Positions 2,427 through 64,000 are shown, counted from the stretch's first letter. The stretch: 64,000 nt of DNA from Candidatus Jacksonbacteria bacterium RIFOXYB2_FULL_44_15 (GCA_001818235.1 MHJY01000005.1:19277-83276); one strand, 5' to 3'. The notes: a model not told the origin generated them from the letters alone. A program made the numbers and translations.

Positions 2427-3441
2427 AGGGAGCTTTTTTGAGTTCTGCCAACAGTTCGTCGAGATCAACCGATTTGGCGGCGATTAGCTTGTCGGCGGCT
2501 CCATAATAAATGTAAAGTCTTTTATCTTGCACCACTGCTCCGGTAGGAAAGACAACGTTATTAACGACGCCTTTTTTTTCCCAATCAGCTTCCGGGGAAA
2601 ACAGGGGCTCGGTTAATCGCCCTAAAACTTTCAGGGGATTTTTTAGATCAAGCAGGGCCGCGGTGGCATGATAGATTTTTCCGCGAGGGGAATTTTCCAC
2701 CCCGTGATAGATAAAAAGCCAGCCGTCTTTTGTTTCTATAGGCGGACAACCGCCGCCGATGTTATGGCTTTCAAACCAAAAGAGGGGATCAAGCACGATA
2801 AAATCATCTAAATTTTTTAAATGATCGCGCCAGTGATCTTCGGTAAATTCGGAGAAACTGTCAAAGTAAACAATTTGAATTCCCGGCAGAACGCGGTGGA
2901 TAAGAGCGAATTTATTATTGAATTTTTGGGGAAAGAGAGAGGCGTCTTTTTCGAACAGCAAAATATCTTCTCCGGCGCTTTCCTTGTAGATCGTTTCGAA
3001 CGTCGTATATTTATCTATGACTTTTGACTCGCGAAAATTGTCGCCTGCTTCTTGGTAAGAAATTTTCGGCGAGATCAGGCCCTGTTTGGCGAAGTGTGTA
3101 AGATCTTTACTTGTGGCGTAGGCAATCAGAGCGTTTTTGCCGTCATAGGCAGTGTAGAAAAGATAGTACGTTCCCTCTAATAGAGTGATTCTGGGATCTT
3201 CGACGCCCCTTTTTTCGTAATCATATTCCGGGCATAGAATCGGCTTGGTAAGTCTTTTGACAACTTTATCATTTTGGAGCTGGCAGTAGCCGATGGAAGA
3301 AACGTTATTCTGGCTAACTGCCCGATAGAACATATGAGTGATGCCATCTATCTGGATGCAGGCCGGGTTTAAAACGCCCTTATTTTCGAATTCCAGCTCT
3401 GTTTTTTCAATTATTATTCCTTCGTTTTTAACTGCGATCAT
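2401..3441 (-). CDS. GH130-family glycoside phosphorylase / DUF377-type beta-propeller glycosidase
   Basis: The N-terminal GVLNPA and the overall pattern fit GH130. It is co-oriented with the GT4 gene and overlaps it. Confidence 0.6.
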   Translation of the reverse strand: MIAVKNEGIIIEKTELEFENKGVLNPACIQIDGITHMFYRAVSQNNVSSIGYCQLQNDKVVKRLTKPILCPEYDYEKRGVEDPRITLLEGTYYLFYTAYDGKNALIAYATSKDLTHFAKQGLISPKISYQEAGDNFRESKVIDKYTTFETIYKESAGEDILLFEKDASLFPQKFNNKFALIHRVLPGIQIVYFDSFSEFTEDHWRDHLKNLDDFIVLDPLFWFESHNIGGGCPPIETKDGWLFIYHGVENSPRGKIYHATAALLDLKNPLKVLGRLTEPLFSPEADWEKKGVVNNVVFPTGAVVQDKRLYIYYGAADKLIAAKSVDLDELLAELKKAPYDSTNKSK

Positions 3442-3486
3442 GGGTTTGGATTTTTTAAATTAGTGAAACTTTTTTACCTCACCTAA

Positions 3487-3508
3487 TACCCCGCCTTTTG
3501 GGGCGGGG
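3487..3508. other. GC-rich hairpin (CCCCGCC-ttttgg-GGCGGGG) between the Dam-like MTase 3' end and the GH130 start. Possible U-tract-less terminator or island boundary.
   Basis: Perfect 7-bp GC stem seen directly in the sequence. No adjacent T-run on either strand. Confidence 0.3.
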
Positions 3509-3553
3509 GAGTGCGTTACTTTTGGCTGGCGTTTTAAAGTTGGACAGGCTTCT

Positions 3554-4621
3554 TTATTTTACGACCACATAATGCAAATACTCGACCGTTTTTTTTGCTT
3601 TATAATTGCGGTTTTCCGACGTGTCCGCTTTAAAACGATTATACTCTTTTGTAAAATGACCATACTTGCCCCTTAGGCTCATTATTTCCTTGATATCGTC
3701 CAAGGACATTAAGCCCTCATTGTTGTAGCTTAAAAAGATATATTTTACTTTTGCTTTTAAAATTAAATTTGTGAAAGCTTTTTTTACTTTTGTTCTTGAA
3801 CAATAAAGAGATTTTTGCTTTTCATACTCTCGTAACCCCGTTTTACCGTGGATTTTCGGATTGTCATACTTAGCCACTGTTTCTAATAAATGATAATTTG
3901 TTGCATATTGGCGGTGATTATATGGTGGGTCAAGATACAGAATATCGCCAGCGACCTTGCTTGCAAGTTCGTTGATATCCTCGTTGAATACTTGGTGCTT
4001 TTGGTCGTTTATTATCAGCTCTGCCGGTTTTAACACTAAGGGTGTTTGTGCCGTTTTTTTTAATTGTTTCAAAAATGCACCGTAGACCGAGGCGGTGTTT
4101 GCTCGCTTATCAATCGTTTCAATAAGCGTAGCCAAGAGAAAATAATACTCATTATTAGTAATCAACTTTTCTTTTTTCCACTTTTCAATTTCCGTTCTTA
4201 TCGCATCGCACCTTTTTCCATTTTCATCTGAAAAATATTGTCGTTGAAATTCCTTATTTTGCGTTCCACCCAAACAATAATTTTTGAATATAAACCCCTT
4301 TATTCCTTTAAGATTTGAAAGGTAATCACAAATAAAGTTTTTCCTCTCGGCAATTTCAATATTTTTCAGTTTTGGTAAAATTTTTATTAATTGCTGAAAA
4401 TTTAGATGTTCGTGGTTTTCAATGTACTGTTTATTGAGAACGAAACTATAATACTGAATATCGTTGGCAATAACCGTATATCCTTTCTTTTTGAAATAAG
4501 AGCCGACAATACCGGTTCCAGCAAATAAATCGCAAAAAACATGACAGTTTTTATCAATCACTTTACTTATTGATTCATCTAAAAATTCTAATAATGATAA
4601 TTTACTGCCGATATAGTTCAT
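3554..4621 (-). CDS. D12-class (Dam-like) N6-adenine DNA methyltransferase
   Basis: N-terminal MNYIGSK...FAGTG (motif I) and LYLDPPYNHRQY (motif IV, DPPY) in alpha-class order. Confidence 0.8.
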   Translation of the reverse strand: MNYIGSKLSLLEFLDESISKVIDKNCHVFCDLFAGTGIVGSYFKKKGYTVIANDIQYYSFVLNKQYIENHEHLNFQQLIKILPKLKNIEIAERKNFICDYLSNLKGIKGFIFKNYCLGGTQNKEFQRQYFSDENGKRCDAIRTEIEKWKKEKLITNNEYYFLLATLIETIDKRANTASVYGAFLKQLKKTAQTPLVLKPAELIINDQKHQVFNEDINELASKVAGDILYLDPPYNHRQYATNYHLLETVAKYDNPKIHGKTGLREYEKQKSLYCSRTKVKKAFTNLILKAKVKYIFLSYNNEGLMSLDDIKEIMSLRGKYGHFTKEYNRFKADTSENRNYKAKKTVEYLHYVVVK

Positions 4622-4623
4622 AA

Positions 4624-5793
4624 CTAATAATTTATTTTCTCAAAAAATAAATCAGCATTTTCTAAATGGTATTCAATATACTTCAGGCTATTACACCTTC
4701 GGGAATTTCTGGCATTAAAATCGTTGAAAGTATCAACAATCTTTTGATACCTTTCTGTAGTTTTATCATCTATTTTTTTGGAAACCAAATAGGGCTGTAT
4801 GTCACTTTGCCTATTCGGGGTGTAATACTGCTCTATCCAGTCAATATATCTTTGTATCTGCTTTGTATTGCTTATGTCCGCCTCTACCGACTTCAATTCT
4901 ATCGGCAACAAAACTCGTTGACCATTTTGGATGGTTGAGACCATAACATCAATTCGTTGCATACCAACCCCACAAGACACTTCATTGCCAAGCCATTCAA
5001 ATTCTAGATTTTCATCCAAAATGCAATTGTCTAAAGACTGATTTATTCCTTTTCCGATATTTCGTACAATGTATGCTTGTAGGTGCGTCTCGAAAGATGT
5101 ATTTGCACGATATTTAGTAACTAATCTCGGGAGTAAATTTATATTTTCCTTTCTGCCGGTATAGGTTTTCACATTGTCGTTAGTCAAAACAATTTTTTGT
5201 CCATTTTGGTCAAATGATAATTTATGGCCGCCGATGTTTAATTCTTGTCTGTTGTTCCTATCCCTTATCAATTGGCATAATCTTTCCGCTTCATAAATAG
5301 TTATCATAGTATTTCCTCTATTGCCTTTCAGCTTTCGATAAATTAAACTCCAAAGCATTTGATTCGGAGATTGCATATTTTTTATCTCATCTAATGCTTC
5401 CCACTCGGTTACGCCATCCGCATAAACCTTACTTGGTTCAATAAGTGTTCTGAAAGTTAAGGATTTCTCTAGTTCATTTGTCAAGTACTGTCCGTTGTCG
5501 TTGTTGTCTAAAAAAGACCAATCATTTTTGGCTTTGAAAATTCCAAAAAATTTTCCCTCAAATATTTTTTTTGAAAATTCTTGTTGTAGATAGAAAATAA
5601 CCTGATCGCCACTTCGCACTCTACTACCATCAGCTATCATCCCAACTAACATATTTTCTTTTGTGTGGTGTAGAATTGTATTTGAGGAATTATTAAAATC
5701 GATATGATTATTTTGTGCTCCAGTGCCGGCAAAAAGATATTCCAAATGTAGTTTGAAAGTGGTTGCACCAACAATGAATACGTGTGTTGTCAT
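4624..5793 (-). CDS. Putative nuclease: N-terminal PUA/EVE-like fold plus C-terminal PD-(D/E)xK core. Candidate restriction endonuclease (or modification-dependent) partner of the flanking MTases.
   Basis: GDQVIFYLQ resembles the EVE GDxVxFYHS motif. The C-terminus has RIDVMV...LPIELK (D...ExK). The gene is packed 2-3 bp from both MTase genes. Domain calls are by eye only. Confidence 0.45.
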   Translation of the reverse strand: MTTHVFIVGATTFKLHLEYLFAGTGAQNNHIDFNNSSNTILHHTKENMLVGMIADGSRVRSGDQVIFYLQQEFSKKIFEGKFFGIFKAKNDWSFLDNNDNGQYLTNELEKSLTFRTLIEPSKVYADGVTEWEALDEIKNMQSPNQMLWSLIYRKLKGNRGNTMITIYEAERLCQLIRDRNNRQELNIGGHKLSFDQNGQKIVLTNDNVKTYTGRKENINLLPRLVTKYRANTSFETHLQAYIVRNIGKGINQSLDNCILDENLEFEWLGNEVSCGVGMQRIDVMVSTIQNGQRVLLPIELKSVEADISNTKQIQRYIDWIEQYYTPNRQSDIQPYLVSKKIDDKTTERYQKIVDTFNDFNARNSRRCNSLKYIEYHLENADLFFEKINY

Positions 5794-5796
5794 AAT

Positions 5797-6426
5797 TTAG
5801 TTTTTAAAAATTAAAATATATTCGTGTTTAAAAATATAGTAATCGCTTGATAATGCTCTGTATTTCCAAATAGCTTCCTTGTTTTGTTTAGCTCGATTAC
5901 CCTCCATATTCTTAATTATAATACTTTTTAGAGTAAGCCCCAATTTTTGTGCTTCATTCAAACAATAAAATCCCAATGGGATCCATTTCCCTTGTGTATA
6001 TTTGTCGCCTATGACTATCGTCAAATATCTATTCTTCTCTAGCAAATCAAGCGTATTGCTGATTACAAGCGAAAATCCATTGAGAAAATCCCGCAAAGAT
6101 TTTGTGTTAGACAAATCCTTTTCGTGATTACTGAATTTGATAATGTTTGCATATGGTGGGTGTAAAATTGCCAGTTGTATATTTTTCTTTTTTTTGCGGT
6201 TTAGAATTTCGGTGATATTCGAAAAAGTATTTTTATCTGTACTATCACCCGCAACAAGTTCTGCAAAATAATTTTTATTATCTACGTTACTTTTAATGTG
6301 CTTTATCAGTTCTGGCTGAATATCAACTCCGATAAAATGCCTGCTCAAACTCTCCGCCTCATAGGCCGTTGTCCCACTACCTACAAATGGATCAAAAACA
6401 ACATCATTTCTTTTTGTATATCTCAA
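5797..6426 (-). CDS. pfam01555-like N4/N6 DNA methyltransferase with permuted motif order (X-I...IV-VIII); TTG start as tracked
   Basis: DPFVGSGTT (motif I) comes at residues 12-20. NIQLAILHPPY (motif IV) comes about 70 aa later. IIIKNMEGN...EAIWKY lies near the C-terminus. A further 67 in-frame codons upstream (to a stop at 6625-6627) encode the motif-X-like peptide HGNFIPQIPRQLI but contain no ATG/GTG/TTG. Confidence 0.6.
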   Translation of the reverse strand: MRYTKRNDVVFDPFVGSGTTAYEAESLSRHFIGVDIQPELIKHIKSNVDNKNYFAELVAGDSTDKNTFSNITEILNRKKKKNIQLAILHPPYANIIKFSNHEKDLSNTKSLRDFLNGFSLVISNTLDLLEKNRYLTIVIGDKYTQGKWIPLGFYCLNEAQKLGLTLKSIIIKNMEGNRAKQNKEAIWKYRALSSDYYIFKHEYILIFKN

Positions 6427-6842
6427 AATTAATTGTCGTGGAATTTGTGGAATAAAATTACCATGATAAAAACCATCATGCTTTCCAGATTTATCGCGTT
6501 CCGGAATAATCCAAAGACTATCGGTCCAAATTTCTGATTCTTTCCAATTATTTAGATTTAGATCATTAAAAATTGGTATATTTTTTTTAGCTCCAGCAAT
6601 TCTGTCGGGCTGGTTTATTCTTGGTTATTATTTTTTAGGAAAAGCGAAGTAAATCTGCTCTCTTTATTTTCCGTCAGGAGCGGTCATTTTCAAGTGTACG
6701 ATTTTTTCGTACACTTGGCTTCCTTCATTTTTCAATTTCCAGTCTTGCTTTTTTAGCTGCAAACCCGCCTCCAGGAGATTCTAATTTCAGTTGTCCTCCT
6801 TTTTGGGACAACTTGTTTTTTTCAACACAGTCAAAATTTAAG

Positions 6843-6914
6843 TCGGGGTACCGAGAGTCGAACTCGGAACCTCACGCACCCGAAGCGTGCGCCATACCAT
6901 TAGGCCATACCCCG
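6843..6914 (-). tRNA. tRNA-Pro (anticodon CGG)
   Basis: Hand-folded. Acceptor stem CGGGGTA/TACCCCG (7 bp, C1:G72, A73). U8, A14, G18G19, A21. Anticodon stem CACGC/GCGTG with loop UUCGGGU (U33, CGG, G37). 5-nt variable loop. T-arm CCGAG-TTCGACT-CTCGG. No encoded CCA. Confidence 0.85.
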
Positions 6915-6945
6915 ACTCAAACTTTGACAAAATAATTTTCAATTT

Positions 6946-62526: not shown

Positions 62527-64000
62527 ATGCACACACCCACTAAAAAACAAAAACAAATTTTAGATTTCATCACCTCTTACATAAACAAGCATGGCATATC
62601 CCCTACCATAGAGGAAATGTCTAAACACTTCAAACGTGCAGTTGGTACGATTCATGAACACGTAGAAGAATGCGTAAAAAAAGGATGCATTAAAAAAAAT
62701 AGTAATTCTTCGCGCGGCATTGAATTATACAAACAATTCGAAATGATAAAAATTCCGTTGTTGGGCACTATTACCGCCGGCCAACCCATCGAAGCAGTAC
62801 AGGAAAAAGAAACAATCGCCATCGCTAAAGATCGATTGCCGCATTCTGGCAGCTTTTTTGCTTTAAAAGTTACTGGCGATAGTATGATTGAAGAAAATAT
62901 TGCAGATGGTGATTATGTAATTGTAAAACAACAAACAACGGCCGAAAATGGGCAAAAGATTGTGGCACTTATAAACGATAATGATGCAACTTTAAAAAAA
63001 TTTTATAGAGAAAATAACAATATACGATTACAACCTGCAAATCAAAAATTTCAGCCTATTTTTGTTAAACCAGAAAATTTTAAAATCCAGGGTGTCGTTG
63101 TAGATATAATTAAAAACACAAAATTTCAACCAAATGTTATTTTTAAAAAGGAAGAAACCACAGCAACCAAAACCAAAGGGTCCTATAATTTTGAGGATAT
63201 CAAAAGGCTACTAGGCAAACCATATTTTGAAACAGACAATTGTTTTATTTATAACGTGGATTGTTTAAGTGCGATGAAGAAAATTGAAAGAGAAGCCATC
63301 GACCTAACAGTTACAAGTCCTCCGTATAATATCGGAAAGGAATATGAAACCGATAAACCTATACAAGAATATATAGATTGGTGCAAACAATGGATGAATG
63401 AAGTATACGGAATCACAAAACAAAATGGCTCGTTCTGGCTAAATTTAGGTTATTTTGAATTTCCTCAAAAAGCAAAAGCCCTCCCCATTACCTATCTATT
63501 ATGGGATAAAACTCCATTTTATTTAATTCAAGAAGTTGTCTGGAATTATGGCGCCGGAGTGGCAGCGAAGAAATTTTTATCTCCACGCAATGAAAAATTT
63601 CTTTGGTACGTGAAAAATCGAGAAAATTATTTATTTAATCTTGATAATATAAGAGATAAAAATGTTAAATATCCCAACCAAAAGAAAAATGGCAGACTAA
63701 GATGTAATCCGCTTGGCAAAAATCCCTCAGATGTGTGGCAGATACAAAAAGTTACATCTGGTAAAGATAGGAGCTCAAAAGAAAGAACTGAACACCCAGC
63801 ACAGTTTCCCGAGGCTTTAATTGATAGGATCATTTTAGCATCGAGTAACAAAAAAGAAGTCATATTAGACCCCTTCTTAGGTTCTGGCACTTCTGCCATC
63901 TCTGCTTTAAAGAATGAAAGAAAGATTATTGGCTTTGAAATTTCAAAAAAATATTGTGGGATCGCCGAACAAAGAATAATAAAGTTACTAGAAAATCAGA
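62527..64000 (+). CDS. LexA-like repressor (wHTH + S24 autopeptidase) fused in frame to a pfam01555-type SPPY (likely N4-cytosine) DNA methyltransferase; 3'-partial (runs off window)
   Basis: ATG 62527. No stop through 64000 (491 codons, checked by hand). It is absent from the ORF track because it is open-ended. The LexA NTD is QKQILDFI...HGISPTIEEM...SRGIELY, with cleavage site LLGTITAGQPI and catalytic VTGDSM...ATLKKF. The MTase has TVTSPPYNIG (motif IV) and ILDPFLGSGTSA (motif I). Confidence 0.75.
   Translation, partial: MHTPTKKQKQILDFITSYINKHGISPTIEEMSKHFKRAVGTIHEHVEECVKKGCIKKNSNSSRGIELYKQFEMIKIPLLGTITAGQPIEAVQEKETIAIAKDRLPHSGSFFALKVTGDSMIEENIADGDYVIVKQQTTAENGQKIVALINDNDATLKKFYRENNNIRLQPANQKFQPIFVKPENFKIQGVVVDIIKNTKFQPNVIFKKEETTATKTKGSYNFEDIKRLLGKPYFETDNCFIYNVDCLSAMKKIEREAIDLTVTSPPYNIGKEYETDKPIQEYIDWCKQWMNEVYGITKQNGSFWLNLGYFEFPQKAKALPITYLLWDKTPFYLIQEVVWNYGAGVAAKKFLSPRNEKFLWYVKNRENYLFNLDNIRDKNVKYPNQKKNGRLRCNPLGKNPSDVWQIQKVTSGKDRSSKERTEHPAQFPEALIDRIILASSNKKEVILDPFLGSGTSAISALKNERKIIGFEISKKYCGIAEQRIIKLLENQ

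Follow-up and report, generated by a model that had tools for sequence, protein, structure and literature searches.

A cassette in which two DNA methyltransferase (MTase) genes flank the gene for an EVE-domain nuclease raises the question of whether that nuclease cuts DNA that lacks a modification or DNA that carries one. We investigated such a cassette in a 64,000-nucleotide stretch of Candidatus Jacksonbacteria bacterium RIFOXYB2_FULL_44_15 (GCA_001818235.1, MHJY01000005.1:19277-83276), hereafter called the window, where three minus-strand genes lie between tRNA-Pro(CGG) and a GH130 gene (Table 1). The reading that we favour, at a probability of roughly 0.55, is that the cassette is a mobile type II restriction-modification (R-M) system, in which the nuclease would be blocked by methylation from either MTase and the recognition site would probably be CATG. 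An earlier note, made from the sequence alone, had offered two alternatives for this locus, namely a DpnII-like two-MTase type II system with an unusual restriction endonuclease (REase), or a hybrid in which a modification-reading nuclease is kept beside MTases of different specificity. The two-MTase system with an unusual REase is what we retain, whereas its likeness to DpnII did not survive the analysis. The gene layout described there, with three tightly packed genes separated by 2-3 nt, was reproduced by open reading frame (ORF) calling (2 nt at 4622-4623 between the D12 MTase and nuclease genes, and 3 nt at 5794-5796 between the nuclease and M1 genes), and the motifs read by eye, NYIGSK, FAGTG, DPPY, GDQVIFY and RIDVMV...LPIELK, are all present in the translations.

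The middle protein of the cassette is identical to an NCBI entry named 'DUF91 domain-containing protein' from Candidatus Jacksonbacteria RIFOXYC2_FULL_44_29. Scanned as a single sequence, it gave only sub-threshold NucS_C and PRK00809 matches (NucS_C, 19.6 bits against a Pfam cut-off of 24; NF003270, 20.9 against 216), and a sequence search of the PDB yielded no relative beyond the domain level. A family alignment of 58 members with 28-56% identity matched the EVE-like UPF0310 structures 2p5d (7.6e-5) and 1wmm (2.3e-4), and PF01878 (EVE) and NucS_C were detected in 30 and 16 of the 58 members, respectively. Indeed, the AlphaFold2 model calculated from a deeper multiple sequence alignment combines an EVE fold with a NucS/FokI-like PD-(D/E)xK fold; it replaced the model of a first run on a shallow alignment (72-94% identity), which had a predicted local distance difference test (pLDDT) score of 64 and gave nuclease-domain matches only. 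The EVE/PUA plus PD-(D/E)xK architecture proposed earlier for this protein is thus supported by both profile and model. The catalytic candidates are E235, D282 (codon 4948-4950), E299 (4897-4899) and K301 (4891-4893), and the last three are invariant in the family alignment down to 28% identity. The window protein is full length and retains all family-invariant residues. In the model, the pLDDT is 55-60 at residues 141-160, and the near-invariant segment in the middle region (Table 1) is probably flexible or DNA-contacting.

This protein, which we call EVE-NucS, differs from NucS/EndoMS (DUF91) in its score below the Pfam cut-off, in an N-terminal EVE domain instead of NucS_N, and in its R-M operon context as opposed to a repair context. 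It likewise differs from the type IIS enzyme FokI, in which recognition is achieved by helix-turn-helix domains, while the cassette nuclease would use its EVE domain. The family comprises ~2,650 clusters at 90% identity and ~300 at 50%, and is common in the candidate phyla radiation (CPR)/Patescibacteria, with further members in Clostridia, Planctomycetota and viral contigs. We found no description of it in the literature searched (the EVE survey of Bell et al., a preprint on the 'END nuclease' and papers sought under DUF91), and the combination of an EVE domain and a NucS-like nuclease in a type II R-M cassette is previously uncharacterised.

Both flanking genes encode amino-MTases, of different classes, as had been described. 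The D12 MTase (M2) matches PF02086 at 3.3e-52 and the PADLOC model MTase_II PDLC03257 at 5e-111, and its motifs I (FAGTG) and IV (DPPY) place it in the D12-class (alpha) N6-adenine type; it is full length with all family-invariant residues present. The second enzyme, M1, matches PF01555 at 5e-23 in two stretches and the PADLOC model MTase_II PDLC03351 at 1e-94, and is collinear with the Trm11-like MTase 5e71. Its N-terminal motif I (FVGSGTT) aligns with the C-terminal end of the PF01555 profile and precedes motif IV (HPPY), so that M1 is circularly permuted relative to this profile (I then IV), in agreement with the original description of a permuted pfam01555-like enzyme. The cassette thus contains two elements expected of a type II R-M system, namely MTases with motifs I and IV and PADLOC MTase_II matches and, next to them, the gene of a probable endonuclease whose catalytic motif is intact.

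The pairing of a D12-class with an N6_N4-class MTase resembles DpnM plus DpnA, and in DpnII/LlaDCHI systems the two classes likewise flank a nuclease in a tight operon. The DpnII/MboI/LlaDCHI analogy drawn earlier, with a Dam-like D12 enzyme, a DpnA-like second MTase and a nuclease cutting GATC, finds further agreement in the match of M1 to Helicobacter pylori DpnA chains (~5e-7 over the motif I region) and in the depletion of GATC in most cassette-bearing loci (observed/expected ratio (O/E) 0.46). However, the window shows no avoidance of GATC (O/E 0.91), and Pfam, NCBIfam and PADLOC scans of the nuclease returned only EVE- and NucS-type matches and no DpnII-family REase, to which the cassette enzyme is unrelated. 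Furthermore, the D12 MTase is of the D12 class but not of the Dam type, with 22.9 bits on the Dam subfamily model TIGR00571 against a cut-off of 114.85; M1 has the motif order I then IV, unlike the beta-class DpnA; and the conventional REase that co-occurs with the family is of the ICEA/NlaIII type, as described below. The nearest annotated relatives of the D12 enzyme are of the HpyI, LlaI or FokI type. As a result, the analogy is essentially refuted, and a GATC-specific system is hardly tenable as an explanation of the cassette.

The relatives of the D12 enzyme point elsewhere. In a comparison that contained no authentic M.NlaIII or M.HpyI, it is 37-38% identical to phage proteins annotated by similarity as 'ulcer associated adenine specific DNA methyltransferase', and it shares 34% identity with an LlaI methylase and 29% with M.FokI. 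The 'ulcer associated' label is that of H. pylori HpyI. From these identities, the D12 MTase appears to be related to the NlaIII/HpyI/FokI group, taken as a broad group. Plasmid relatives of the enzyme (H2-H4) were uninformative, as they belong to other two-MTase systems.

We then compared 15 distinct contexts of intact nuclease family members, cited here by locus number. In every one of them, one or both of the MTase families found in the window are represented by an intact gene beside that of the nuclease, usually 2-10 nt away. The order M1-nuclease-D12 of the window recurs in L005 and L014; in L008, L010 and L012/13 it is followed by a protein with a HARE helix-turn-helix (HARE-HTH) domain, and in L007 it is preceded by a C-protein gene, with the contig ending after D12. 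Shorter forms consist of nuclease-D12 (L006) or M1-nuclease (L009 and the viral contig L105). Other, more distant cassettes include a gene of the ICEA family, either after M1-nuclease (L011), together with all three genes (L016/17, L098 and L100/101), or in the order nuclease-ICEA-212-aa protein-D12 (L099). A cassette can do without one of the MTases or without ICEA, but in none of the 15 contexts does the nuclease occur without an MTase, and in the only decayed copy (L106) the nuclease and the D12 MTase are both broken. In addition, genes for XRE-type C-proteins of 67-77 aa immediately precede the operon in L007-L010 and the nuclease gene itself in L016 and L098. Such C-proteins are typical of type II R-M systems.

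Since the nuclease is never without an MTase, although M1, D12 or ICEA can each be dispensed with, both MTases would act on the same site and the nuclease would be toxic when unprotected; such toxicity in turn suggests that it is a methylation-blocked REase. In the mechanism that we propose for this integrase-less cassette, which was acquired horizontally and inserted between tRNA-Pro and GH130, M1 and D12 would modify the same site, with either enzyme alone sufficient to protect the host DNA, and the mix-and-match pattern of the cassettes indeed suggests a shared site, as for DpnM/DpnA in DpnII systems. The nuclease would cut DNA without the mark set by M1 or D12, and the EVE domain may examine the target base and reject a methylated one. 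The fuller cassettes could then be two isospecific R-M pairs that became fused.

The ICEA gene, which is carried by L011, L016 and L098-L101, offers a different role for the nuclease. The L098 product matches PF05315 (IceA1/NlaIII family) at 8.7e-70, and the L100 product, with which its counterparts in L016 and L011 share 54% and 43% identity, matches the PADLOC model REase_II at 2e-28. In L098 and L099, the nuclease gene either overlaps ICEA by 4 nt or is separated from it by 2 nt, as would be expected if EVE-NucS were a partner subunit of ICEA or a latent 'retaliation' nuclease in the style of PrrC in EcoprrI, possibly acting on RNA or single-stranded DNA, and if the window copy were the remnant of a larger cassette. 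This explanation also draws on the JGI name of family members ('predicted RNA-binding protein'), on the frequent binding of RNA or single strands by EVE/PUA/YTH domains, and on the further nuclease-like gene in several cassettes (HARE-HTH with a PD-(D/E)xK-like part, NERD or Mrr_N). However, ICEA is missing from at least 9 of the 15 contexts, in which the nuclease is intact and highly conserved, and a tblastn search of the window with three ICEA-type proteins found no such gene (PF05315). The gene order relative to ICEA is not fixed either, with nuclease-D12-ICEA-M1 in L100/101 and ICEA-C-protein-nuclease in L016, and R.NlaIII-type enzymes act alone with one MTase in Neisseria and Helicobacter. 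An accessory nuclease of this kind, which might for instance be latent like PrrC and lie within an NlaIII-type R-M system, therefore seems improbable to us.

Some of the related loci have features of their own. The broken copy in L106 (5034-5881, a viral contig) is a nuclease without its first ~50 residues and its C-terminus, accompanied by a 78-aa D12 fragment on the opposite strand, and it adjoins genes for a 775-aa N6_Mtase-type protein and an apparent IS200/IS605 TnpB-like protein. In L010 (352-2298), M1 and the nuclease are each split by a single frameshift, and may be pseudogenes or assembly errors. The HARE-HTH protein that follows D12 (245 aa; L008 3456-4190, L010 3381-4115, L012 12248-12985 and L013 3161-3898) has a C-terminal half that is weakly PD-(D/E)xK-like (PDDEXK_5 0.044, Hjc 0.045), and the equivalent slot holds an Mrr_N-domain protein in L009 and a NERD protein in L016. 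These HARE-HTH, Mrr_N and NERD proteins are possible additional nucleases of the cassettes.

The ICEA-bearing relatives bear on the recognition site. IceA1 shares 52% identity with R.NlaIII, and the MTase gene next to it, hpyIM, has CATG specificity (PMC2749054). Since related cassettes encode an IceA1/NlaIII-family endonuclease and an NlaIII/HpyI-like D12 enzyme, CATG is the probable site of the window cassette. Like the NlaIII and IceA1-HpyI systems, the window has a D12-class N6-adenine MTase of the 'NYIGSK...DPPY' type from the same broad group, and ICEA (PF05315) stands beside the same two MTases in related cassettes. The window cassette differs from these systems in lacking ICEA and in having two components that the classical NlaIII/HpyI systems, with their two genes, do not include, namely the permuted N6_N4 MTase and the EVE-NucS nuclease. 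Most copies of the cassette are indeed surrounded by DNA depleted in CATG: the O/E is 0.51 for the flanks of 11 cassette loci and 0.87 for a phylogenetically narrow set of 38 control CPR loci (Mann-Whitney p = 5e-5), and the flanks of L006 contain 2 CATG words where 40 are expected. This avoidance is consistent with CATG as the site, as supportive and not decisive evidence.

We also examined whether the window copy is intact. The first MTase had been placed at 5797-6426, and an ORF does start there at a TTG codon, but the gene is longer. The frame is open to 6626, and the region upstream of the TTG encodes a conserved M1 segment, SLWIIPERDKSGKHDGFYHGNFIPQIPRQL. Ten M1 orthologues start with ATG-CCA-ATT-TTT-AAT-GAT (MPIFNDLNL) or a close variant (ATG-CCx/ACT/GCA), and the window reads ATA-CCA-ATT at 6579-6571, with ATA (6579-6577) in place of the ATG. 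The open frame and the orthologous starts together extend M1 to 6579 and indicate that its ATG was mutated to ATA. The same variant is present in four independent assemblies of the same population (L001-L004), whose sequences are identical, and the NCBI annotation uses an ATT start at 6573, two codons downstream of the ATA. M1 is thus either poorly translated from a non-canonical codon or a pseudogene in the making, and protection would probably come mainly from the D12 enzyme.

The lost ATG, the lack of a C-protein gene and of a fourth gene, and the missing avoidance of CATG in the host would agree with a local copy that is decaying and no longer functional, independently of what the family does in other genomes. 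Nevertheless, neither the nuclease nor the D12 MTase is truncated or lacks a family-invariant residue, the M1 frame shows no other defect and its product shares 85% identity with the L005 orthologue, NCBI annotates M1 from its ATT, and the sequence is the same in all four assemblies. We consider such a non-functional remnant quite improbable.

Several points weigh against the interpretation of the cassette as a methylation-blocked type II system. The PUA-superfamily nuclease fusions tested to date are modification-dependent, and the architecture of EVE-NucS thus predicts the opposite behaviour; moreover, a DNA MTase lies within 3 kb of <6% of these fusions, a scarcity that was used as an argument for modification dependence (Lutz et al. 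2019, PMC6765204). The ICEA-bearing cassettes already contain a complete NlaIII-type REase, beside which a second isospecific REase looks redundant, and the HARE-HTH, Mrr_N or NERD protein of other cassettes could be the real partner. The nuclease matched no PADLOC REase model. Furthermore, the window itself shows no depletion of CATG (O/E 1.02-1.04), and GATC and ACGT, too, are lower in the cassette loci than in the phylogenetically narrow controls. Finally, with the start codon of M1 lost, the local cassette may be partly decayed. The missing CATG avoidance fits either a recent arrival, in line with the low GC content, or a system weakened by the loss of the M1 start.

The first of these points favours the second alternative of the earlier note, in which EVE-NucS is a modification-dependent, type IV/IIM-like nuclease that reads a foreign base, e.g. 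5-methylcytosine, 5-hydroxymethylcytosine or a non-cognate N6-methyladenine (6mA), through the EVE pocket. The nuclease would travel in a mobile operon with the MTases, joined in the fuller cassettes by an NlaIII-type REase; together these enzymes would restrict both unmodified and modified invaders, and the window would have lost its classical REase, leaving the MTases and the type IV nuclease. The conventional REase that is already present in the ICEA-containing cassettes fits this arrangement, and dual restriction of modified and unmodified DNA was proposed by Bell et al. for R-M-associated EVE proteins (PMC7641849). However, a type IV enzyme needs no MTase, yet an MTase from these two families is retained beside the nuclease in all 15 contexts, including the two-gene forms without any other nuclease (L006 and L105). 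The C-protein genes directly upstream of the nuclease in L016 and L098 would also be unexpected, and the MTases and the nuclease are similarly conserved in the cassettes without ICEA. Because of this strict MTase linkage and the frequent C-protein, the modification-reading hybrid becomes less likely, and we regard it as unlikely overall.

The comparison with characterised PUA modification-dependent endonucleases makes the same contrast. VcaM4I/TspA15I (EVE-HNH), MspJI/AspBHI (SRA-PD-(D/E)xK) and ScoA3V share with EVE-NucS the N-terminal PUA-superfamily domain followed by a nuclease, which in the cassette is a NucS/FokI-like PD-(D/E)xK module. MTases rarely neighbour such fusions, at the frequency cited above (PMC6765204), whereas they always accompany the cassette family: the absence of a cognate MTase nearby, on which Lutz et al. 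(2019) relied, does not apply to EVE-NucS, which has MTases adjacent in every context examined. The family is a systematic exception to the rarity of MTases beside PUA-nuclease fusions. This matters because PUA/EVE-nuclease fusions serve as a bioinformatic signature of type IV restriction, partly for the very reason that they rarely adjoin MTases. If EVE-NucS is a methylation-blocked REase, as we favour, the reading of unmodified DNA is a further role for which the EVE fold was recruited, the architecture rule has a large exception, and the family is a possible source of a new restriction enzyme for CATG-type or other sites. It is also conceivable, although doubtful, that the EVE domain is a true methyl-base reader coupled to its own MTases, with their 6mA acting as an 'off' or self signal, or with modified invaders as the target of attack and the MTases as a safeguard against cleavage of unmodified DNA. 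An R-M system sensing modification through a flipped-base pocket would be undescribed for type II, and the reading of modified bases in a system coupled to MTases would amount to a new defence logic.

The cassette is horizontally acquired and mobile. Its GC content is 0.332 against 0.427 in the rest of the window, and no other 3-kb stretch of the window is as low in GC (mean 0.424, standard deviation 0.024) or deviates as much in tetranucleotide composition; the GC content at third codon positions is 0.28-0.34 in its genes and 0.39-0.50 in the neighbours. The AT-richness noticed by eye was thereby borne out. We fetched 80 loci with relatives of the window's GH130 gene for comparison, and found the cassette in none of them. 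In L020, L031, L032, L040 and L054, tRNA-Pro lies 80-470 bp upstream of the GH130 relative with no cassette in between (in L040 it is a CGG tRNA at 145 bp), while the interval in the window is 3.4 kb. Since the tRNA gene stands directly upstream of GH130 in these relatives, the window cassette is an insertion. The locus thus has the features of a tRNA island, namely a position on the 3' side of a tRNA gene, absence from relatives and deviant composition, which agrees with the earlier idea of integration at the tRNA 3' end; the machinery implied by that idea did not appear, as we found no integrase ORF and no significant attL/attR-type repeat of the tRNA 3' end between the cassette flanks. These data document an integrase-less insertion at the tRNA-Pro/GH130 junction. 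The best direct repeat between the two flanks (3403-3435 and 6728-6760, 76% over 33 nt) was judged to be due to chance, with a score of 26 against 19.6 +/- 2.6 and a maximum of 31 in shuffled sequences.

Outside this locus, several CPR phyla have nuclease homologues with 72-94% amino acid identity, among them Wolfe-, Buchanan-, Pace-, Harrison-, Nomura- and Peregrinibacteria, as do other metagenome-assembled genomes. A search of genome contigs with the single nuclease query recovered 7 loci only. The M1-nuclease-D12 trio lies in unrelated neighbourhoods, such as a region resembling a mobile genetic element in L012 and a position before murD in L005. In the Pacebacterium L014 (6512-12240), the whole three-gene cassette is directly downstream of dnaA-dnaN, in the replication-origin region, and in the Peregrinibacterium L016 the cassette is next to groES/EL. 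A tblastn search with the nuclease gave one weak plasmid match and no phage match. These distributions add to the evidence that CPR bacteria, which are poor in CRISPR, depend on R-M cassettes that are mobile. In the relatives L021, L026 and L078, tRNA-Pro and GH130 are also far apart, at 2.7-5.6 kb as opposed to 80-470 bp; the interval contains a P-type ATPase in L021, and an S-adenosylmethionine-dependent MTase and a 336-aa ORF, Fic/RhuM-like by eye, in L026. Genes may have been gained repeatedly at this junction.

Table 1. Coordinates of the cassette and its surroundings, counted from the first nucleotide of the window.
Feature	Coordinates	Strand	Remarks
Spacer, M2 stop to GH130 start	3442-3553	minus	holds GC hairpin 3489-3508
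D12 MTase (M2) ORF	3554-4621	minus	355 aa; ORF calling
Middle protein (EVE-NucS nuclease) ORF	4624-5793	minus	389 aa; ORF calling
PD-(D/E)xK domain, residues ~231-389	4627-5103	minus	
Middle region, residues ~141-230	5104-5373	minus	near-invariant WSLIYRKLKGNRGxTMIT (148-165), then helix and beta-hairpin
EVE (PUA-superfamily) domain, residues ~1-140	5374-5793	minus	includes GDQVIFY
M1 (N6_N4 MTase) gene, corrected	5797-6579	minus	260 codons counted from the orthologous start
M1 ORF as called from TTG	5797-6426	minus	ORF calling
tRNA-Pro/M1 spacer, non-coding	6580-6841	minus	three-frame translation, Rfam
tRNA-Pro (anticodon CGG)	6842-6914	minus	ARAGORN; Rfam RF00005, 62.3 bits

The surroundings of the cassette required some adjustment of the initial description. 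The tRNA-Pro gene, being on the minus strand, does direct its 3' end toward the cassette, but 'abutting' describes their positions only loosely, as 262 nt separate it from the real start of M1 and 415 nt from the ORF called from TTG. No C-protein gene was found in this spacer by three-frame translation, and Rfam detected no RNA family there. The GC hairpin at the other end of the cassette, reported at 3487-3508 and located by us at 3489-3508, is real yet unremarkable, with a 7-bp stem, no T-tract, -19.6 kcal/mol and a z of -1.76 against shuffled sequences. Promoter and terminator scans gave counts not above those of shuffled sequence. Just downstream of tRNA-Pro, a hairpin with a 9-bp stem (6789-6813) reads as an intrinsic terminator on the plus strand, where a T-run follows it, antisense to the cassette.

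The word statistics of the window also revealed a stronger avoidance than those considered above. GCWGC (GCAGC/GCTGC) is the lowest 5-mer in the 64 kb, with 23 observed against 98 expected (O/E 0.23), and the next-lowest has an O/E of 0.65. As a candidate site of the cassette, GCWGC was left unassigned, since its O/E varies between 0.13 and 0.83 across other cassette hosts and the cassette is compositionally recent. The word is low in some other CPR loci (L005 0.31, L009 0.13), but not in all, and its scarcity suggests a long-standing pressure from a TseI/ApeKI/BbvI-like R-M system elsewhere in the genome. At ~62530-64000 on the plus strand, an ORF running off the window end fuses a LexA-like DNA-binding domain, an S24 peptidase (GDSMIE) and a beta-class N6_N4 MTase with an N4-cytosine-like motif IV (SPPY) and with ILDPFLGSGTS at its C-terminus. 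L012 (1495-2952) encodes this LexA-S24-MTase fusion as well (485 aa). The MTase could be cleavable in the SOS response or regulate itself, and is possibly linked to the avoidance of GCWGC.

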